From: Dictyostelium discoideum
Lineage: Eukaryota
Reading direction: 5' to 3'
Assembly (NCBI GenBank): GCA_000004695.1
Contig: CM000154.2
Location: forward strand, 800,001-864,000
Length of the DNA stretch: 64,000 bases
Shown: positions 16,754-25,733 of the stretch, piece by piece
Position numbering within the stretch: the first letter of the stretch is position 1
Layout of the letters: each line of letters starts with the position of its first letter
Notes under the pieces: generated by a model
Told to the model about the DNA's origin: nothing
Database searches by the model: none
The model's input: only the letters and a program-made list of their open reading frames with translations
Position numbers and translations under genes: made by a program

Positions 16754-19700
16754 GTAATAATAATAGTATTTTAAATAATCAAATTGATAAATTAGCAATT
16801 AATTCATTAAGATCATTAGGATTTTTTTTATATTCATCATCAATTATTAAATGTTTATCATCAGATACTCAAATTAGAGAGATTTCAACATTGTTAGAGA
16901 ACACTATTCAAGTTACAAAAAATAAGAATATATGTAACTATGCGATTTGGTGTTTTTCATCCCAAAGTTTTCCAAATGGTCCAATTAGTAATAAATTACC
17001 AAATACATATTGTGATTTATTAGAAAACACTCCATTCAATTCTAAAACCATTGAAAATGAAGTTTTAAATTCTTTTACAACATTGCTACAACAAAATATT
17101 CAACTCTATTTAAATTCAACTGAAATTTGGTTACCAATTATTTTTAATAAAATTTTAAGATTAGAAAATTTACCAAAGTAAGTATATAAAAATTCATAAA
17201 TAAATTAATAAACAAATTAATAAATAAAATAAATTATTTAAGAAATTAATAATAAAAAAATATATAAAATAATAGTATAACAGAAAAATTAAAACAAATT
17301 TTGGAAATTGTTGTTAATCATTATCAAATGAAGAATAATGTAATGAGTGAAAGAGTATCAGAGGTGTTATTAAGTAATTGTAATAGTTTTATGGAGAATA
17401 TGGGTAAACTATTTGATACAAAGAATGAAATTCTAAGTATTCAATGTTGGGGTATCTATGTTTTCTTTACTGGTAAATTAATATTTGTAAATAAAATGGC
17501 AAATAAAGTTTTAGGTTTAGCAGAGGTAAGTTAATAATAATGATAATAATAAATTTAAAAAATCAATATAATAATAATAATTTCTTTAAAAAAAAAAAAA
17601 AAAAAGAAATGTTTTACACATGAAAATAAATTAGTTAGAATTGAAACATATAATAGTTGGAAATTATTAATTGATAGTATGGATATTGAATATATTAGTG
17701 TTGATAAAAGATTAGAATTATTTTGTGCACCATTTATGACAGGATTTACAAGTGAACGTGAAGCAGAGGTTAAAAAAACTAGTTTTTCAACATGGATGTA
17801 CTTTTTAAAACAATTTAAAACTCAACTATTCGATGTTTTCAATAAAGTTTTTACACCACTTTTTATTAGCATTTTAAAGAATATAAAGACTTTTAAAGAT
17901 AATGATGAAAGTGAAAATGAAAAGAATAAAAATAAAAATAATAATAATTATAGTAATAATGCAGATTTTGAATTAGGTGAATCAGCATTACATTTATTAG
18001 TATCAATTACAGCACCGTCACAAGAGGTTAGAAGAGTTTCAAAATTAAAATTACAGGGATTGTATGGTATTGTTTTGGATACATTACCATTATCATTCAA
18101 TTCCAATCAAGTATTGAAATGTATAACTGGTGATTTGGAACCATTTACATTGGCAATCTCAACCAATTTCCTTTCAACTTCGACACCAACTAAAACCATT
18201 TTACCATATTCAAATGAAAAAATTGAAATTTGGAGTGGTCTATTGAAGAGAATGTCAAATATTGATAAGAGGGATCAAAACTATTTACCTTTTTTAAAGA
18301 ATGTTTTATTATTTATTCAGAAATTATTTGCCCAATTGGACCCATCCTCCCTATCACCTGATGATCATGAATTATGGTTTTATCGTTCAATTTATCAATT
18401 AACAATTTCAAATGTACCAAATTCAGTTTTAATTGGTAGTGGAAGTAGTAGTAGTAATACTGAAAATACTGGTGGTGGTAGTGGTAGTGGTAATGGTGAA
18501 AATATAATTGAAAATATAAATGGTGGTAAAAATTATATTGCTATTGATTTCTTTACATTGAATTTAATAGAATTTGGATTTAAATTAAATCCTGATCAAA
18601 TTAAAGAATTTTTAATACCATTGTTTGAAGAGTTATGTTCGTGTAGTTTCTCAAGTAATAATTATGTTGATTTAGCTTCAAGATTAAACTTTACAGTGGG
18701 TGTAATGAATGATAATGTCGATTCAGATATTGGCTTAGTTTATCTTTTACAACTTTGGTTCACACTAACTAAAACCATTCAATCATTTATAAAAAAGTCA
18801 CATCAACTATTATCTTTACCTCAACCATTGATAATAAGAATATTGGAGAGTATTTCAAATTTACTCATTTGGCCACTACGTGCAATTGCTTCGACACCAT
18901 ATTCCAACGATACAAGTATTAAACCAAGTTCAATGTTGGAATCAAATATAAAATTATGGAAATCAACTTTTCAATCAATGGTAACCATATTTTCAATTAA
19001 AACCACTTTAAATCCAACAATTGCTTTCATATTACAAACTATTGATGATTTACAATTGAATTGTCATTTCAATTATTTCGATTTCATTCTATCAATAATT
19101 TCACCATTATTAGATAATTATGATATTACTCCAATAATTCAAAGTGGTAATATAAATAATCAACATGAAAAAAAGAAATCTATAAAGAATAATAATAATA
19201 ATAACAATGGATCACCAGTAGGAAACTTATTAGAAATTGATTTATTAATTTCAAATATATTATTAAATTTAAATAATATTTTAATGAATTGTCATCATAG
19301 TAAAATGATAATTAATGGTGGTGTTAATCAGTTTAGAGTGTTGAAACAATTATCACCTTTATTTGAAAGTATTGGAAATATGATTAAAAAGTGTAAATCT
19401 GTACCAATGTGTTTGGCAACCTTAAAGAATATGGAAGGTTCATTCATTTTATACTTAAAAGATGGTGGTAAACCAACCGATCAAACAATTCTTACAAAGC
19501 AAACTAATGAAGATAAATATATATTGACAACGTTAATTAAAAGTTCTTTCTTTACATTTTATTCAAATACATTGGATATTTTAATTAATGATGCTTCAAA
19601 TCTATCATCATCATCATCAACTTATTCCTCCTCTTCACCAATTTATAATAATAAACTCTTGGAACAATTAGAATTATTAATTATATCAGCATTTACAAGT

Positions 19701-20519
19701 TTATCTGATGAAAATAAAGAAAAAGTATTATTCTTTTGGAATGAAACTTGGGGTAGACAATCTCAAAATCAAGATTTAATTTATCCTTCAAAACTATATA
19801 AATGTTTTAAAAAGTTAGAGAATAGAGTATCAATTAAATTACCAAATTTTCAAAATCAACTAAACAACAACAATAACAACATCAATAATAATAATAAACG
19901 TTCAAATTCTCATTTAAGTGAATATAATAATTATACACTTGAATTAAATTCATCAAGAAATGAAGATTCTCAAGATGGTTTTATTTTACCAGAGTCTGAA
20001 CTTAATAAATTTAATAATCATAATACTAATTTAATAAACAAAGATAATAAAGATGTGATTATGGGTGGTAAATCTTCAAATACAACAGCAACACCAAAAA
20101 AGAAACAAAGAGTTTCAACTTCCTCCAATAAAGATCAATATGTTTTCATTGATAAACCAATAGAAAATGATATTTCCACACAATCATTAACTGAACATCA
20201 AATGGAAATATTTGAAAAACAAAAACTAAAAAGAAATTCCTCTACAACTTTATCCTCTTCATTATCATCTGCAAGCAACTCCAACAATAATAATAACAAT
20301 AATAATAATAGTAATAGTAACACTCCTCCAACATTATTATTAAATGGTATTAATGATAAATATATTGAAAATGAAGATTTACTCAGTATAATTAATAATT
20401 TAAATGATAAATTATTTGAAAATCAATCAACACTTTCACTATTACAAATTCAAACTATTTCTTTGGAAATTTCAAATAAGATTAATATAATTTTAAAAAA
20501 TAGGTTATTTAATAAATAA
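16399..20519 (+). CDS. Rif1 (telomere-associated / replication-timing factor) orthologue. Three exons at 16399..17177, 17276..17525 and 17607..20519.
   Basis: N-terminal HEAT-like blocks match my recollection of metazoan RIF1: NSLRSLGFFLYSSS ~ ALQALGFCLYNPK, NYAIWCFSSQSFPNG ~ RTRALWVISKQTFPSE, and TYNSWKLLIDSM...SVDKRLELFCAPFM ~ AFIAWKSLIDNF...SAKRLKLLMQPL. Two GTAAGT introns have consistent phases. Confidence 0.65.
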
Positions 20520-20585: not shown

Positions 20586-20921
20586 TTATTTCATTGAATC
20601 AAGAATTTTTCTAAGTTGAGTTTCGTTTGGTGAAACTTAAAAAAAAAAAAATTATAGTTAATATTTTTCATTTTTAATTTTGATTGGATATTTTTTTTAT
20701 TTTTTTAAAATTTACACACCAATTTCTTTTGTTTTTTTTCCCTTTTGGTATAACATAATTGTTGGAATACTTGTTATTGATTTTGTTGATTCATGTACAT
20801 TTATTTTATCAATTTCAACTTTTAAAAATGTTACCAAAGGGTATTGAGTGCTTAATTTGTTAAAAATTGGCTCTAAAACTTTGCAAGCCTGAAACATTTA
20901 AGTTTTTAGTTTTTTTTTGTC

Positions 20922-20952
<31 letters not shown>

Positions 20953-21272
20953 TACTTACACCTTTAATTCCAATTGATTTGAATATTTAATTAAATATTT
21001 ATATAAATATAATTATTTAATTAATTAATTTGACAATTTTAAATAAAATCCTATTATTAATAAATATATTATTTAAATTTAAATAAAAAAATTTTAATAA
21101 TTACCACCTAAAAAAAAAATAAAAATATGATTTTAGTTAATTTACAGTTTTAATATGATTTAATTTTAAATAGAAACTTACACCATTCAGCTCCAAAATT
21201 TATAATTACTTGGTCACCTTTTAATAATTCATCTAATTTTGTATTTATAGAAACATTAGTAACCTTACTCAT
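20586..21272 (-). CDS. Thioredoxin-like gene with a probable three-exon structure. The exon1/exon2 join is problematic (see findings).
   Basis: Exon 1 is MSKVTNVSINTKLDELLKGDQVIIINFGAEWC with a GTAAGT donor. Exon 2 is ACKVLEPIFNKLSTQYPLVTFLKVEIDKINVHESTKSITSIPTIMLYQKGKKTKEI. Exon 3 is (V)SPNETQLRKILDSMK*. This is the thioredoxin fold pattern (WC..CK, FLKVDID, IPT). Confidence 0.55.
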
Positions 21273-21342
21273 TTTTCTAATTATTGCTTTAAGTTTATTT
21301 TTTTTTTTTTTTTTTTTTTTCTCAACAGCTTTTTAAATTGAG

Positions 21343-21383
<41 letters not shown>

Positions 21384-21559
21384 ACCCCAACTGTTTGAAA
21401 ATGTTAAGTATTAATATCTAAAAATAATAAAATTATTTTTATTTATTTGTTGCTAAAATATGATTCGATTATTTAAAATAATTTTTTAATAATTTTCCTA
21501 ATTAAAATTTATTGATTTTTTTCTATTAATACTATTATTATTTTTTTTTTTTTTAATCT

Positions 21560-22005
21560 AATTTGTTGTTTTTTTTTTTACCAATAATAAAATTATTTAT
21601 TTTTTTCGAGAATATCTCTAAGCGACTGTTCACTTACAACATCTTTAATGAAAACATATGTTATAATTTTAATTTTGATATTTTTTAAATTTTACAAAAA
21701 AAGAAATACTTTACTTAATTCTCCAACTTGCGATCCACCTTTAAAAACTTTGAAAATTTTTACTAGTATTTTTTAGTATCTTTAAAAAATAAACATATAA
21801 ATAAAAAAAGAACAAATTATACATACTCCACCTAAAATAAAAGGTAAAAAAATTTAAAAAGAAACAAAATTATTAATATTAGAAGAAATCCTTTTATGGT
21901 AATATCAAAATAAAAACTTACTCCATTCTGCACTAAAGTCAATTATTGGTCTTTCAAATGTTTATCTAATTCAAATGGTGATGAAACAAAAATTACTCTG
22001 CTCAT
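21560..22005 (-). pseudogene. Second, tandem thioredoxin-like copy that looks like a pseudogene.
   Basis: Exon 1 reads MSRVIFVSSPFELDKHLKDQ* in the ATG frame. The -1 frame continues IIDFSAEW with the same GTAAGT donor position as the upstream copy. Relative to the neighbour (gaccaaGtaatt versus gaccaataatt) one nucleotide is missing. No middle exon with CxxC or FLKVDID can be found. A C-terminal-like exon (IFKVFKGGSQVGELS / NVVSEQSLRDILEKNK*) is present. Confidence 0.45.
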
Positions 22006-23154: not shown

Positions 23155-25733
23155 TTCCCAAAAATAATTAAGCAAATAAAACAAATTATTATTTTACGGT
23201 TAATCAAGAATCATTTGAAGAAGCATTAGATAGATTTTCATCATTTTTTATATCACCATTAATGAATGAGGATGCAGTTAATAGGGAATTGAATGCTGTG
23301 GATTCAGAACATAATAATAATATGCAAAAAGATTTTTGGAGAATGGATAGAATTGTTAATGATCAATTTGAAGGTCACCCAATGTCAATGTTTTTCACTG
23401 GTGATAGTTCAACCTTGAAACGTGATGATATCCGTGAGAAGGTTGTTGAATTCTATCAACGTTACTATAGTGCCAATTTAATGAAAGTTTGTATCTTTGG
23501 TAGGGAATCTTTGGATCAATTGGAGGAGTATGCAAATAAATACTTTTTACCAATTGTTAATAAGGATGTGAAAGTTCCAAAGCTTCCACCGTTGGCCATC
23601 ACGTCGAAATCGATAATGATCGAAGCAGAGCCAACACAAGATATGGATCTTTTGAAATTTGTTTTTCCAATACCCGATGAAAAGTTATGCTTCTCAAAGA
23701 ACTACAAGAATGCAAGTGCAAGCATTCTATCACATATATTGGGTCATGAATGCCAAGGTAGTCTATTTTCAGTGTTGTTCAATAAAGATTATGCATTCTC
23801 TCTATCCATTAGTAGTAATTCATTCTATGAGAATATGAACAAAATTGAAATTCAAATTCACCTAACCAAAACAGGCTTAGAGAATGTAGACGAAGTTATA
23901 GCCTTACTCTTTCAATCGTTTGAATTTGATACACCAGAATACTTTTTCACAGAGAAGAAACTTTTAAGTGAAATCAATTGGAAATCTTTTCAAAAAAGTG
24001 CACCCGCCAGCACCACCCAAGCCATCACCAGTAACTTGTTCCGTGTTGAAAGACCAGAGGAAACATTAAAGTATAATAACTTTTTAGAGCAATTTGCACC
24101 AGAGAAAATTAAAGAGATTCAAAGTTATCTTCGTCCTGATAATATGATTTGTTTATTCTATTCCTCAACCAAATTCAAAGGTAAAACCACCGAAATCGAA
24201 CCACATTATAAAATTAAATTCAACAAAAGATACATTGAACAATCAGATTTCGATAAATGGAAATCTTTCCCAAAGAATACCAATCTTTTCCTACCAAAAG
24301 AGAATCCATTCCTCCCAATCGATACTACCATCAAAGCGCCACAAGATCATTCAATTCATATTCCAAAGGAGGTTTACAACAACAATGGTGTTAAAGTCTA
24401 TCATTCATTGGACCATCGTTTCAATTCACCAAAGGCCAGAGTCAACATTCGTTTCGAATTGACTTCCTATGGTAATAATCAATCGATGGTAATGTGGAAT
24501 CTCTTAAAGAAATCACTTAAAGAGGTATTGAATGAAAAGATTCTTTACTATCTTTCAGTTTTAGATTTCTCAATGAAACTTCAAATTCTTACCACTCATG
24601 TAGAATTGCAATGCTATTGCTTCAATGATATCATCTTCACTGCGTTGGGCAAGGTTTTTGACTTTTTAATGAATTTAGATCTAAATGATATGCAATTCAA
24701 AAGAATCAAAGAAAAGGTTGCAAAAAGATTCCTCAGTAGTCATTATCTATCACCCTATCAAATTTCAATGCGTCATTTATCTTTACATAATTTTAATTGT
24801 AATTCAATGTTATTGGATAAACAAGAATACTTGAAAAAAGTGACAAAATCAGAATTCCTCAATTATTTCAAATCATTATTCTCCTATATCAATTTTAGCG
24901 CTATGGTAGTTGGTAATGCTTCCATTGAGGATGCTTGTGCTTTTGGTGAGAAACTCAATTCATTCTCTAATCGTAATTCCGCTTGTCCAGGTGAAGTTTT
25001 CAAATTGGCAAGAGTGAATTTACCATCGAATACAATCACTCATCAAAGAGAGTTTCTTTATGATACCAATCAAACCAATTGCTCCTCTTCCATTTCTTTC
25101 CTTATTGGTCAATTCAATAGAAAAACCTATGCAACTACATTGGTGATTTGTTCAATTTTAGGTAGTGCTTACTTTGAAGAACTTAGAACTAAAAAACAAT
25201 TTGGTTACGTTGTAAATTGTGCTCAAGATTGTACGGGAAATGCCATTTCAATGCGTTGTATCGTTCAGTCACACACTAAAACCCCTGAAGAAATTTTCGA
25301 TGCCACTATGGAATTCTTTGTTGGTTTTGAAAAAACTTTAGATTACTTCAAAACAAGTCCCTCTGATTTTAAGGATCTCATTGAGAATTGTCAAAAACAA
25401 AACACAGTAAAACAACAAAGTAATAGTGCTCAATCTTCGCTCTATTGGAGTTTCTTCACTTTTTGTGGTGATTTCGAATTTGAAAAAAAGAAATATGAAG
25501 ACATTGGTAAAATCACTTTTGATGATGTCAAACAATACTATCTCGATCATCTCTCTCCAAATACCGCTAATTTACGTATTTTCGCAGCTCATTGTTATCC
25601 ACAATCTTATCAAATTCCTGATGAAGTTAAACCTTTTGGAAATGTAAAAGTTAATCTCCTTAGAAAATATGAACATGATAATTTTAAAGAAAATCATGGT
25701 TATTTATCATCAAAAGTAAATTTACAAAAATAA
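22730..25733 (+). CDS. M16A metallopeptidase, insulin-degrading-enzyme/insulysin-like. Two exons at 22730..23057 and 23173..25733.
   Basis: Inverted zincin motif GLAHFLEHMLFLGTEKFP (HxxEH). After a 115-nt intron come TNYYFTVNQESFEEALDRFSSFFISPLMNEDAVNRELNAVDSEH, the canonical M16A downstream block. The product is about 960 aa. Confidence 0.85.

Follow-up and report, generated by a model that had tools for sequence, protein, structure and literature searches.

Adjacent 3-nt and 2-nt exons are predicted to split the active-site codons of trxD, the intact member of a tandem thioredoxin pair in Dictyostelium discoideum

The closest described systems are the micro-exons of plants, namely the 1-nucleotide (nt) exons of APC11 and VPS55 and the adjacent 5-nt and 12-nt micro-exons found in rice, with pervasive misannotation of such exons leading to truncated or altered proteins (PMC4674806, PMC8831610), and the alternatively spliced 3-nt micro-exons of animals, such as micro-Ex8 of Drosophila homothorax (PMC7392893). 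Here, we analyse a thioredoxin locus within a 64,000-nt stretch of D. discoideum AX4 DNA (contig CM000154.2, positions 800,001 to 864,000; hereafter the window), to which all coordinates below refer unless another locus is named. Two head-to-tail thioredoxin-like loci, at 20586-21272 and 21593-22005, can be read directly from its minus strand, on which every exon, intron and intergenic element discussed here also lies, and tblastn with three thioredoxins as queries found no further thioredoxin loci in the 64-kb window; in this respect the original prediction for this DNA was right. The low-coordinate copy and its product are already known, as a protein search with the conceptual product identifies it as DDB_G0287849, trxD, 'Putative thioredoxin-4', on a 5.1-Mb contig of D. 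discoideum AX4 (104 amino acids; XP_001134530.2, Q1ZXE0.2, THIO4_DICDI; P0001 in our analysis), and this reference entry is correct at the protein level. What the sequences point to, with a probability of about 80%, is that trxD is intact and has five exons of 91, 3, 2, 169 and 50 nt, that this micro-exon layout is family-wide, and that the high-coordinate copy is an unprocessed pseudogene. On this reading the tandem arrangement of the two thioredoxin genes is an old one.

The coding sequence of trxD, 315 nt for 104 residues, opens with exon 1 (21182-21272, 91 nt), whose ATG lies at 21272 and which encodes MSKVTNVSINTKLDELLKGDQVIINFGAEW and base 1 of Cys31, with a 100% tblastn match to residues 1-30 of the reference protein; as had been recognised from the start, it ends in phase 1, as GAA TGG T, at a GTAAGT donor (21182/21181). 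Intron A (21108-21181, 74 nt, GTAAGT...TTTTAG) leads to micro-exon 1, the three nucleotides GTG at 21105-21107 (tag/GTG/gtaatt), which would complete Cys31 (bases 2-3) and begin Gly32 (base 1). Intron B (20962-21104, 143 nt, GTAATT...TTAAAG) is followed by micro-exon 2, the two nucleotides GT at 20960-20961 (aaag/GT/gtaagt), which would supply bases 2-3 of Gly32 and restore phase 0. Intron C (20889-20959, 71 nt, GTAAGT...TTTCAG) precedes exon 4 (20720-20888, 169 nt), which starts in phase 0 as cag/GCT TGC AAA and encodes ACKVLEPIFNKLSTQYPLVTFLKVEIDKINVHESTKSITSIPTIMLYQKGKKTKEI plus the first base of a Val, and the gene is completed by intron D (20636-20719, 84 nt, GTGTGT...TTAAG) and exon 5 (20586-20635, 50 nt), which finishes this Val, encodes SPNETQLRKILDSMK and includes the TAA at 20588-20586. 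Both micro-exons are flanked by canonical AG and GT, so that six consecutive coding bases are cut by three GT-AG introns of 74, 143 and 71 nt (T^GTG^GT^GCT), and the joined T+GTG+GT+GCT TGC reads C-G-A-C.

One line of evidence for this arrangement comes from the active-site junction itself. The reference trxD protein reads ...AEWCGACKVLEP..., with the active site AEWCGACKV, and the trxD messenger RNA (mRNA) must therefore link TGG T to GCT TGC through GT GGT. The 293-nt gap between exon 1 and exon 4 holds just 12 GT and 11 AG dinucleotides, across which we enumerated every possible chain of GT..AG introns, with no more than three introns per chain and none shorter than 45 nt. This gave 22 products that preserve the open reading frame (ORF), and a CxxC motif is present in exactly one of them (WCGAC), by way of introns 21181-21108, 21104-20962 and 20959-20889; this path uses both perfect GTAAGT donors and, continued through exon 4, intron D and exon 5, translates to the reference protein exactly. 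Along this sole canonical CxxC path Cys31-Gly32 of WCGAC is drawn from the 3-nt and 2-nt exons, and the change from phase 1 to phase 0 depends on micro-exon 2, without which the reading frame is lost. The original prediction had taken the CAG at 20889 as the only acceptor before the phase-0 start of the main exon, and had concluded that canonical splicing could not rebuild the CxxC, leaving a non-canonical intron, an indel or a CxxC-less protein to account for the gene. The phase-0 start at 20888 holds, but that CAG is not the sole usable acceptor in the enumeration, and the all-canonical path through GTG and GT gives WCGAC, as in Q1ZXE0, without recourse to a non-canonical intron or a CxxC-less product; the apparently broken junction is explained by the annotated gene, and nothing new needs invoking. 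The ag/GTGG element that had been noticed in both copies does occupy matching positions in the two (21110-21104 and 21834-21828), but it is not intronic, being micro-exon 1 in trxD.

The surroundings of the two micro-exons are also rare in the window as a whole. The motif AGGTGGTAWKT occurs once on its two strands, at 21109-21099 (expected 0.18), and AGGNGTAWGT likewise once, at 20963-20954 (expected 0.24); both fall in the trxD gap, in the correct order and on the correct strand. From these sequences we infer use of the micro-exon junctions in the trxD mRNA, where the predicted 3+2 junction is GCTGAATGGT-GTG-GT-GCTTGCAAAG (junction strings GAATGGTGTGGTGCTTGC and GAATGGTGTGGTGCTTGCAAAG). The corresponding predictions are GAATGGTGTGCTTGC / GAATGGTGTGCTTGCAAAG if micro-exon 1 is skipped, GAATGGTTTTTAGAGCC / GAATGGTTTTTAGAGCCA with a cryptic acceptor at 20879 and GGTGGTAATTATTAA if intron B is retained, and the paralogue version of the 3+2 junction would be GAATGGTGTGGTCCATGTAGAGC. 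Two further candidates were set aside: a longer exon ending ...AAAGGT, examined by eye and unsystematically, reads ...IFKSIGIKG in the frame back from GT and has no usable ATG or acceptor, and U12-type or other non-canonical splicing is unnecessary and not matched by the donors.

Conservation singles out the same positions. The trxD locus of AX4 was aligned with its orthologues in ACTFIW, ACTFIR and ACTFIZ (the last being 'D. cf. discoideum' and more distant), the assemblies compared being GCA_054859355.1, GCA_054859385.1 and GCA_054859235.1. Among these four genomes the exons are 91-97% identical with no indels over 315 nt, and the introns 64-85% identical with many indels; in the comparison with ACTFIZ the exons stand at 91-95%, again with no indels, and introns A-C at 64-65% with many (65% for AX4 vs ACTFIZ in intron B outside the islands described next). 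The two longest four-way invariant blocks within introns A-C are the micro-exon islands, of 16 nt each with their splice sites included, namely island 1 (TAGGTGGTAATTATTA, 21110-21095) and island 2 (AATTAAAGGTGTAAGT, 20969-20954). The next-longest are the exon-1 donor (GTAAGTTTCT) and TAAAACT of intron A, and, towards the end of intron C on its 3' side, a block made up of an A-run and CTAAAA (20918-20904), which could be a candidate branch site. The end of exon 1, both islands and the start of exon 4 are identical in the four assemblies, save for substitutions within the first codon of exon 4 (GCT/GCA/GTT). Every genome retains the eight splice sites and the two micro-exons, and each encodes an intact 104-residue product, with CGAC in AX4, ACTFIW and ACTFIR and CGVC in ACTFIZ.

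The protein so assembled is a recognisable thioredoxin. It matches PF00085 at 74.3 bits (cut-off 23.5; E=8.7e-21), with residues 15-101 aligned to positions 12-102 of the 103-position profile, and a CxxC follows the Trp, with both Cys and the Gly kept and the canonical Pro replaced to give a non-canonical motif. A cis-Pro loop is present as SIPT at residues 72-75, and the position of the buried Asp is occupied by Asn; the loop and the Asp are functionally important, as known from E. coli and human thioredoxin. The trxD protein may be redox-active.

The same layout recurs among paralogues. A profile search recovered Trx-3, Trx-1 and AAA33260.1, together with predicted paralogues from seven recent assemblies of D. 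discoideum, D. cf. discoideum and D. citrinum (locus tags ACTFIR/T/U/V/W/Y/Z). Eight paralogue loci were read, and in seven of them (from ACTFIY, ACTFIW, ACTFIT, ACTFIZ and D. citrinum) an intact gene has the pattern TGG T/GTAAGT, AG/GTG/GTATGT, AAAG/GT/GTATGT, TTAG/CCA TGT and then the 169-nt exon, with introns of 69-208 nt and a full-length (104-residue) thioredoxin from each. Together with the four trxD orthologues, 11 intact genes thus have exons of 91/3/2/169/~50 nt, and the out-of-phase junction, for which comparison with paralogous trx genes had been proposed, turns out to be the same micro-exon pair across the D. discoideum/citrinum group. Paralogues from other strains with this layout are 61-87% identical to a Trx-like query, itself 91% identical to Trx-3 and 78% to Trx-1. 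A search of representative proteins with trxD returned mostly multi-domain proteins, along with P0097, and no identifiable Dictyostelium paralogue.

The micro-exons vary within this frame. Both of the D. citrinum genes examined have GA as micro-exon 2; in paralogue L008 the codon becomes GGA, still Gly, and in the D. citrinum gene at the position syntenic with our locus the micro-exons GTA and GA give WCRPC. In the paralogue ACTFIY_005144 (L010:1001-1713; P0166) micro-exon 1 is CTG, which gives WSGPC with the splice layout fully kept, and its predicted product is a monothiol thioredoxin-like variant with Ser in place of the first active-site Cys.

A measure of indirect transcript-level support comes from deposited thioredoxin proteins. 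Trx-1 (P29445, AAA33258.1), Trx-3 (P29447, DDB_G0294489) and AAA33260.1 all read WCGPCRAI, and AAA33258.1 and AAA33260.1 (Trx-1, Trx-3) are early GenBank entries that we take to be derived from complementary DNA (cDNA). At four closely related paralogue loci (L004, L005, L006 and L011) the bases for CGPC can be obtained from canonical sites only through the 3+2 path, so that the WCGPC of deposited Trx-1 and Trx-3, read with these loci, would lend the micro-exon pair indirect support, provided that the entries are cDNA-derived. For AX4 itself, the obsolete gene model P0159 (UPI00004E34BF) runs AEWCKFLFIEENIMNFFILIL-PCRAIAP, reading through intron A of trxC, and so shows a predicted trxC with the same intron A and an exon starting PCR. 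Wetterauer and colleagues reportedly described the Dictyostelium thioredoxins in 1992 as a developmentally regulated multigene family; that paper lay outside our literature search, which returned no account of micro-exons in Dictyostelium or of how these thioredoxin genes are built, the one occurrence of 'microexon' in a Dictyostelium paper being an option of the TopHat command line.

The origin of the layout can be bracketed by the eighth locus, from Cavenderia fasciculata (L007:1501-1983), where TGG TGT GGT CCA TGC stands uninterrupted in one exon and an intron follows two bases later (TGC AG/GTAAAT). Because the motif is encoded there by a single exon, the three-intron cluster appears derived, gained in the D. 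discoideum lineage; the micro-exon layout would then be ancestral to the thioredoxin family of D. discoideum and D. citrinum and have arisen after the Cavenderia split. In the paralogues introns B and C both begin GTATGTATAA, a hint that intron B might come from a duplication of the 5' end of intron C, although 10 shared nt are weak evidence in AT-rich DNA.

Several alternatives to the five-exon reading were weighed. The one that survives best, though we consider it unlikely, is that GTGGT (21107-21103) forms one 5-nt exon, that the intron after it is non-canonical, being AA...AG in trxD and AT...AG in the paralogues, and that island 2 is left unused. The five bases are contiguous in the genome in trxD and in most paralogues and would give the same protein; this is the placement that a cDNA-to-genome aligner would naturally choose, and a true GTGGT/GTATGT arrangement exists in the ACTFIW/ACTFIR pseudogene discussed below. 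Such an exon would, however, need gene-specific non-GT donors (AA, AT), whereas the 3+2 path gives GT donors in 11 of 11 genes, and the ATGTAT that would serve in the paralogues differs from the U12-type donor ATATCCTT. It would also leave without a role the AG/GN/GTAWGT found 120-155 nt downstream in every gene, and without a reason the invariance of island 2 across the four trxD orthologues while its flanks diverge.

A decidedly unlikely alternative is that trxD makes a product without CxxC, as its main form or as an isoform, either from the cryptic acceptor GCAAAG/ at 20879 (AEW-F-LEPIF) or by skipping of micro-exon 1 (WCACK). Both paths are canonical and in frame, the cryptic-acceptor form was chosen by automated annotation in ACTFIR and ACTFIZ (P0003, P0004), and the loss of 3 nt is frame-neutral, so that skipping would be plausible as a minor isoform. 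Automated annotation is a poor guide here, however: every automated thioredoxin model examined in the seven recent assemblies (P0002-P0004, P0155, P0160-P0166) lacks an intact CxxC/CGPC and has in its place a garbled motif such as AEWSISPVF, AEWLISPVF, AEWFLEPIF or AEWCKFLL...PCR, because the 3-nt and 2-nt exons were missed, and P0155 additionally fuses the gene with the adjoining pseudogene. As the same pipelines give CxxC-less models (P0155, P0160, P0164, P0165) for relatives of the WCGPC-bearing Trx-1 and Trx-3, the absence of the motif is a systematic artefact. A CxxC-less trxD would moreover have no need for the conservation of both islands and of TGC AAA G upstream of the cryptic site, and the PF00085 score falls from 74.3 bits with WCGACK to 64.6 with WCACK and to 44.7 in the CxxC-less form. 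The current entries for trxD (Q1ZXE0.2, XP_001134530.2) and Trx-3 (P29447.2, XP_001134491.2) are both version 2, consistent with a later revision of these two models, and the annotation error in the other thioredoxin models could be corrected with the pattern AG/NTG/GT...AG/GN/GT.

It is very improbable that trxD too is non-functional, either untranscribed or truncated as ...AEWCGNY and a stop after removal of intron A, and looks intact owing to recency or weak drift. Most of the observations that weigh against an intact, working trxD bear on this point. The ratio of nonsynonymous to synonymous substitution rates (dN/dS), which rests on few substitutions, is 0.39-0.48 in comparisons with ACTFIZ and reaches 0.87 between the closer strains. 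The active site is CGAC, or CGVC in ACTFIZ, instead of CGPC, and Asn takes the place of the Asp that precedes the motif (IINF in trxD, VIDF in the paralogues); these replacements of Pro and Asp suggest that the redox properties have changed or that constraint has been relaxed. In D. citrinum the counterpart of trxD is a pseudogene, so the gene is dispensable in a close relative. In a collection of 5.8 billion proteins trxD matched entries from genome-annotation sources only, with no transcript-derived trxD protein among them. The obsolete model P0005 (UPI00004E4323), a fusion of trxD exon 1 with remnants of the pseudogene and spliced pieces of intergenic DNA, ends CGNY and a stop. To these may be added, on the splicing side, the contiguity of GTGGT in the genome and the fact that the link from Trx-1 and Trx-3 to the layout runs through other strains and the obsolete P0159. 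Decay of trxD is nevertheless hard to reconcile with 315 coding nt that carry no indel and no stop in four genomes, one of them with about 35% intron divergence and many intron indels, with the dN/dS of 0.39-0.48 against this most distant genome, or with the preservation of eight splice sites and both micro-exons in all four, and the true pseudogene next to it offers an example of decay within the same period. The five-exon trxD therefore remains the preferred reading. As for a sequencing or assembly indel in the reference that creates the apparent phase problem, such errors are common in AT-rich DNA with homopolymer runs like this, but the idea is negligible here and effectively ruled out, since the critical sites read alike in four independent assemblies and the micro-exons make a correction unnecessary.

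The high-coordinate copy (21593-22005) is an old unprocessed pseudogene whose decay has taken its own course in each lineage. That it is a decaying copy had been predicted, and a premature stop, a Cys-to-Ser change, the absence of about 230 nt and counterparts disabled differently in three genomes all bear this out. The frame of its ATG at 22005 opens MSRVIFVSSPFELDKHLKDQ and meets a TAA at 21945-21943, before IIDFSAEW, which lies in another frame; this stop was correctly foreseen, as was the absence of the CxxC/FLKVDID middle exon, but the lesion is not the loss of one nucleotide: the exon-1 remnant (22005-21922) has 84 nt, compared with 91 in every intact member and in the orthologous pseudogene of ACTFIW/ACTFIR, and a 7-nt deletion has occurred. 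The first Cys has become Ser (TGT to AGT, in TGG A/GT), the intron-A remnant is kept, and a fused 5-nt remnant GTGGA (21831-21827) runs directly into GTATGT (together 21831-21821). The ~230 nt missing relative to ACTFIW/ACTFIR comprise the 3' part of intron C and the 5' part of the 169-nt exon, whose tail survives as IFKVFKGGSQVGEL at 21758-21715, and a last-exon remnant lies at 21642-21593. The coding remnants MSRVIFVSSPFELDKHLK, IIDFSAEW, FKVFKGGSQVGEL and VVSEQSLRDILEKNK can still be read, with intron A and the last intron at the family positions. A protein search with the reconstructed ancestor of the pseudogene returned a single candidate, which was not significant.

In ACTFIW and ACTFIR the main exon of the counterpart is present, and the copy is disabled by other changes (ATG to ATT, TGG to AGG, CGPS, in-frame stops); in ACTFIZ the 3' part alone survives. 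The ACTFIW/ACTFIR junction GTGGT/GTATGTATAATTTG is the expected outcome of a precise removal of intron B, with a donor context like that of intron C in the paralogues. On this evidence the high-coordinate copy would have lost intron B, with fusion of the micro-exons to GTGGT or GTGGA, and would afterwards have gained the frameshift, the Cys-to-Ser change and the large deletion. An (AAT)n microsatellite is expanded in the pseudogene intron of ACTFIW and ACTFIR (L001:3248-3355, L002:3290-3365), in the region that is deleted in AX4. A second tandem pair lies elsewhere in the genome of ACTFIT, where an intact Trx gene and then a pseudogene occupy 2501-3215 and 3729-4421 of L006; in this pseudogene codon 11 is TAA, the micro-exon-1 acceptor reads TGG instead of TAG, the island-2 donor is damaged (GTGTAT) and the main exon carries a frameshift. 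In the thioredoxin family, decay after tandem duplication seems to recur.

The fates of the two copies appear to be exchanged in D. citrinum. The syntenic locus of that species (L009, GCA_054859325.1) lies between a peptidase M16 gene and a gene with a Rif1_N domain. At the position of the AX4 pseudogene (L009:1001-1622) it has an intact gene, with WCRPC and intron B kept, and the counterpart of trxD (L009:~1915-2300) lacks an ATG and the 169-nt exon 4, which is deleted, has small deletions within exon 1 and reads TTG for TGG; its micro-exon-1 island and last exon are still present. This looks like reciprocal loss of tandem duplicates. The orthology of the intact L009 gene with the AX4 pseudogene is positional only, being based on synteny and a shared intergenic motif: the gene is 49% identical to the reconstructed AX4 pseudogene and 73% to another D. 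citrinum paralogue, and gene conversion or non-orthology is possible.

That intergenic motif is a conserved block between the two copies (21321-21410), consisting of TTTTCAAACAGTTGGGGTG, a T-run and then AAAATCTCAATTTAAAAAGCTGTT; with its variants the second half reads AAAATCT(C/G)AATTTAAA(A/C)AGCTGTT. It lies ~50-140 nt upstream of the trxD ATG, at ~3880-3960 in the other-strain loci L001-L003 and at ~1810-1870 in L009, and is kept in all four genomes of the D. discoideum group; it can still be recognised in D. citrinum, even though trxD is a pseudogene there. The block may be a candidate promoter or regulatory element of trxD. As for the wider surroundings, the G+C content of the window is ~16-36% along its length, with a mean of ~22%, and long ORFs lie at 23262-25733 and 17679-20519. 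The trxD orthologue at L001 is flanked by a peptidase M16 gene and a gene of ~1,300 amino acids, and the neighbour of similar size on that side in D. citrinum (1,297 amino acids) is the one that bears the Rif1_N domain.

How exons of this size might be spliced can be outlined from what is expected of short introns. Exons of 2-3 nt are beyond bridging by exon definition and would be spliced by intron definition, the mode expected for the short introns of Dictyostelium (here 69-208 nt). Since an acceptor and a donor separated by 2-3 nt could hardly be occupied simultaneously, the three introns would probably be removed sequentially, much as in recursive splicing, with 2-3 nt left behind. More tentatively, and with somewhat less than even confidence, we suggest that the family constitutively splices adjacent 3-nt and 2-nt exons as the result of an intron gain after the Cavenderia split, that this is a previously undescribed case and among the shortest adjacent pairs, and that it is accompanied by reciprocal pseudogenisation. 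If true, these thioredoxin genes would offer a tractable model for how the spliceosome deals with an acceptor that lies 2 nt from a donor; adjacent 3-nt and 2-nt exons within an active-site motif, in at least 11 genes, would be an extreme form of micro-exon splicing in a genetically tractable organism, and the tandem pair a small, clean example of reciprocal duplicate loss between D. discoideum and D. citrinum.

Comparison with known systems begins within the family. Trx-1 and Trx-3 (trxA and trxC; P29445, P29447) have the same fold and a similar length (104-105 amino acids), and trxD is 41-42% identical to them; it differs from them and from the other paralogues in having CGAC or CGVC rather than CGPC, Asn rather than Asp, and micro-exon donors GTAATT and GTAAGT rather than GTATGT, and it is named 'putative'. 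The high-coordinate copy resembles unprocessed pseudogenes in general, with intron positions and flanks kept, a tandem position beside a paralogue, a frameshift, a stop, loss of the active site and a deletion; unlike its relatives it is without intron B and has its micro-exons fused into one 5-nt exon. Like the 3-nt exons of animals, micro-exon 1 of trxD could be included or skipped without change of frame (skipping would give WC-ACK); unlike them, it has a 2-nt partner that is obligatory for the frame, and there is no sign of regulated alternative use. The predicted trxD exons also resemble the plant micro-exons, which have been validated by reverse transcription PCR (RT-PCR): in both cases the exons appear to be constitutive and coding, too short for exon definition, flanked by canonical AG and GT with strong GTRAGT-type donors, conserved and missed by annotation pipelines. 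Unlike the plant examples, those of trxD belong to the Amoebozoa, form an adjacent 3-nt and 2-nt pair that would split two active-site codons, and recur across a paralogous family.

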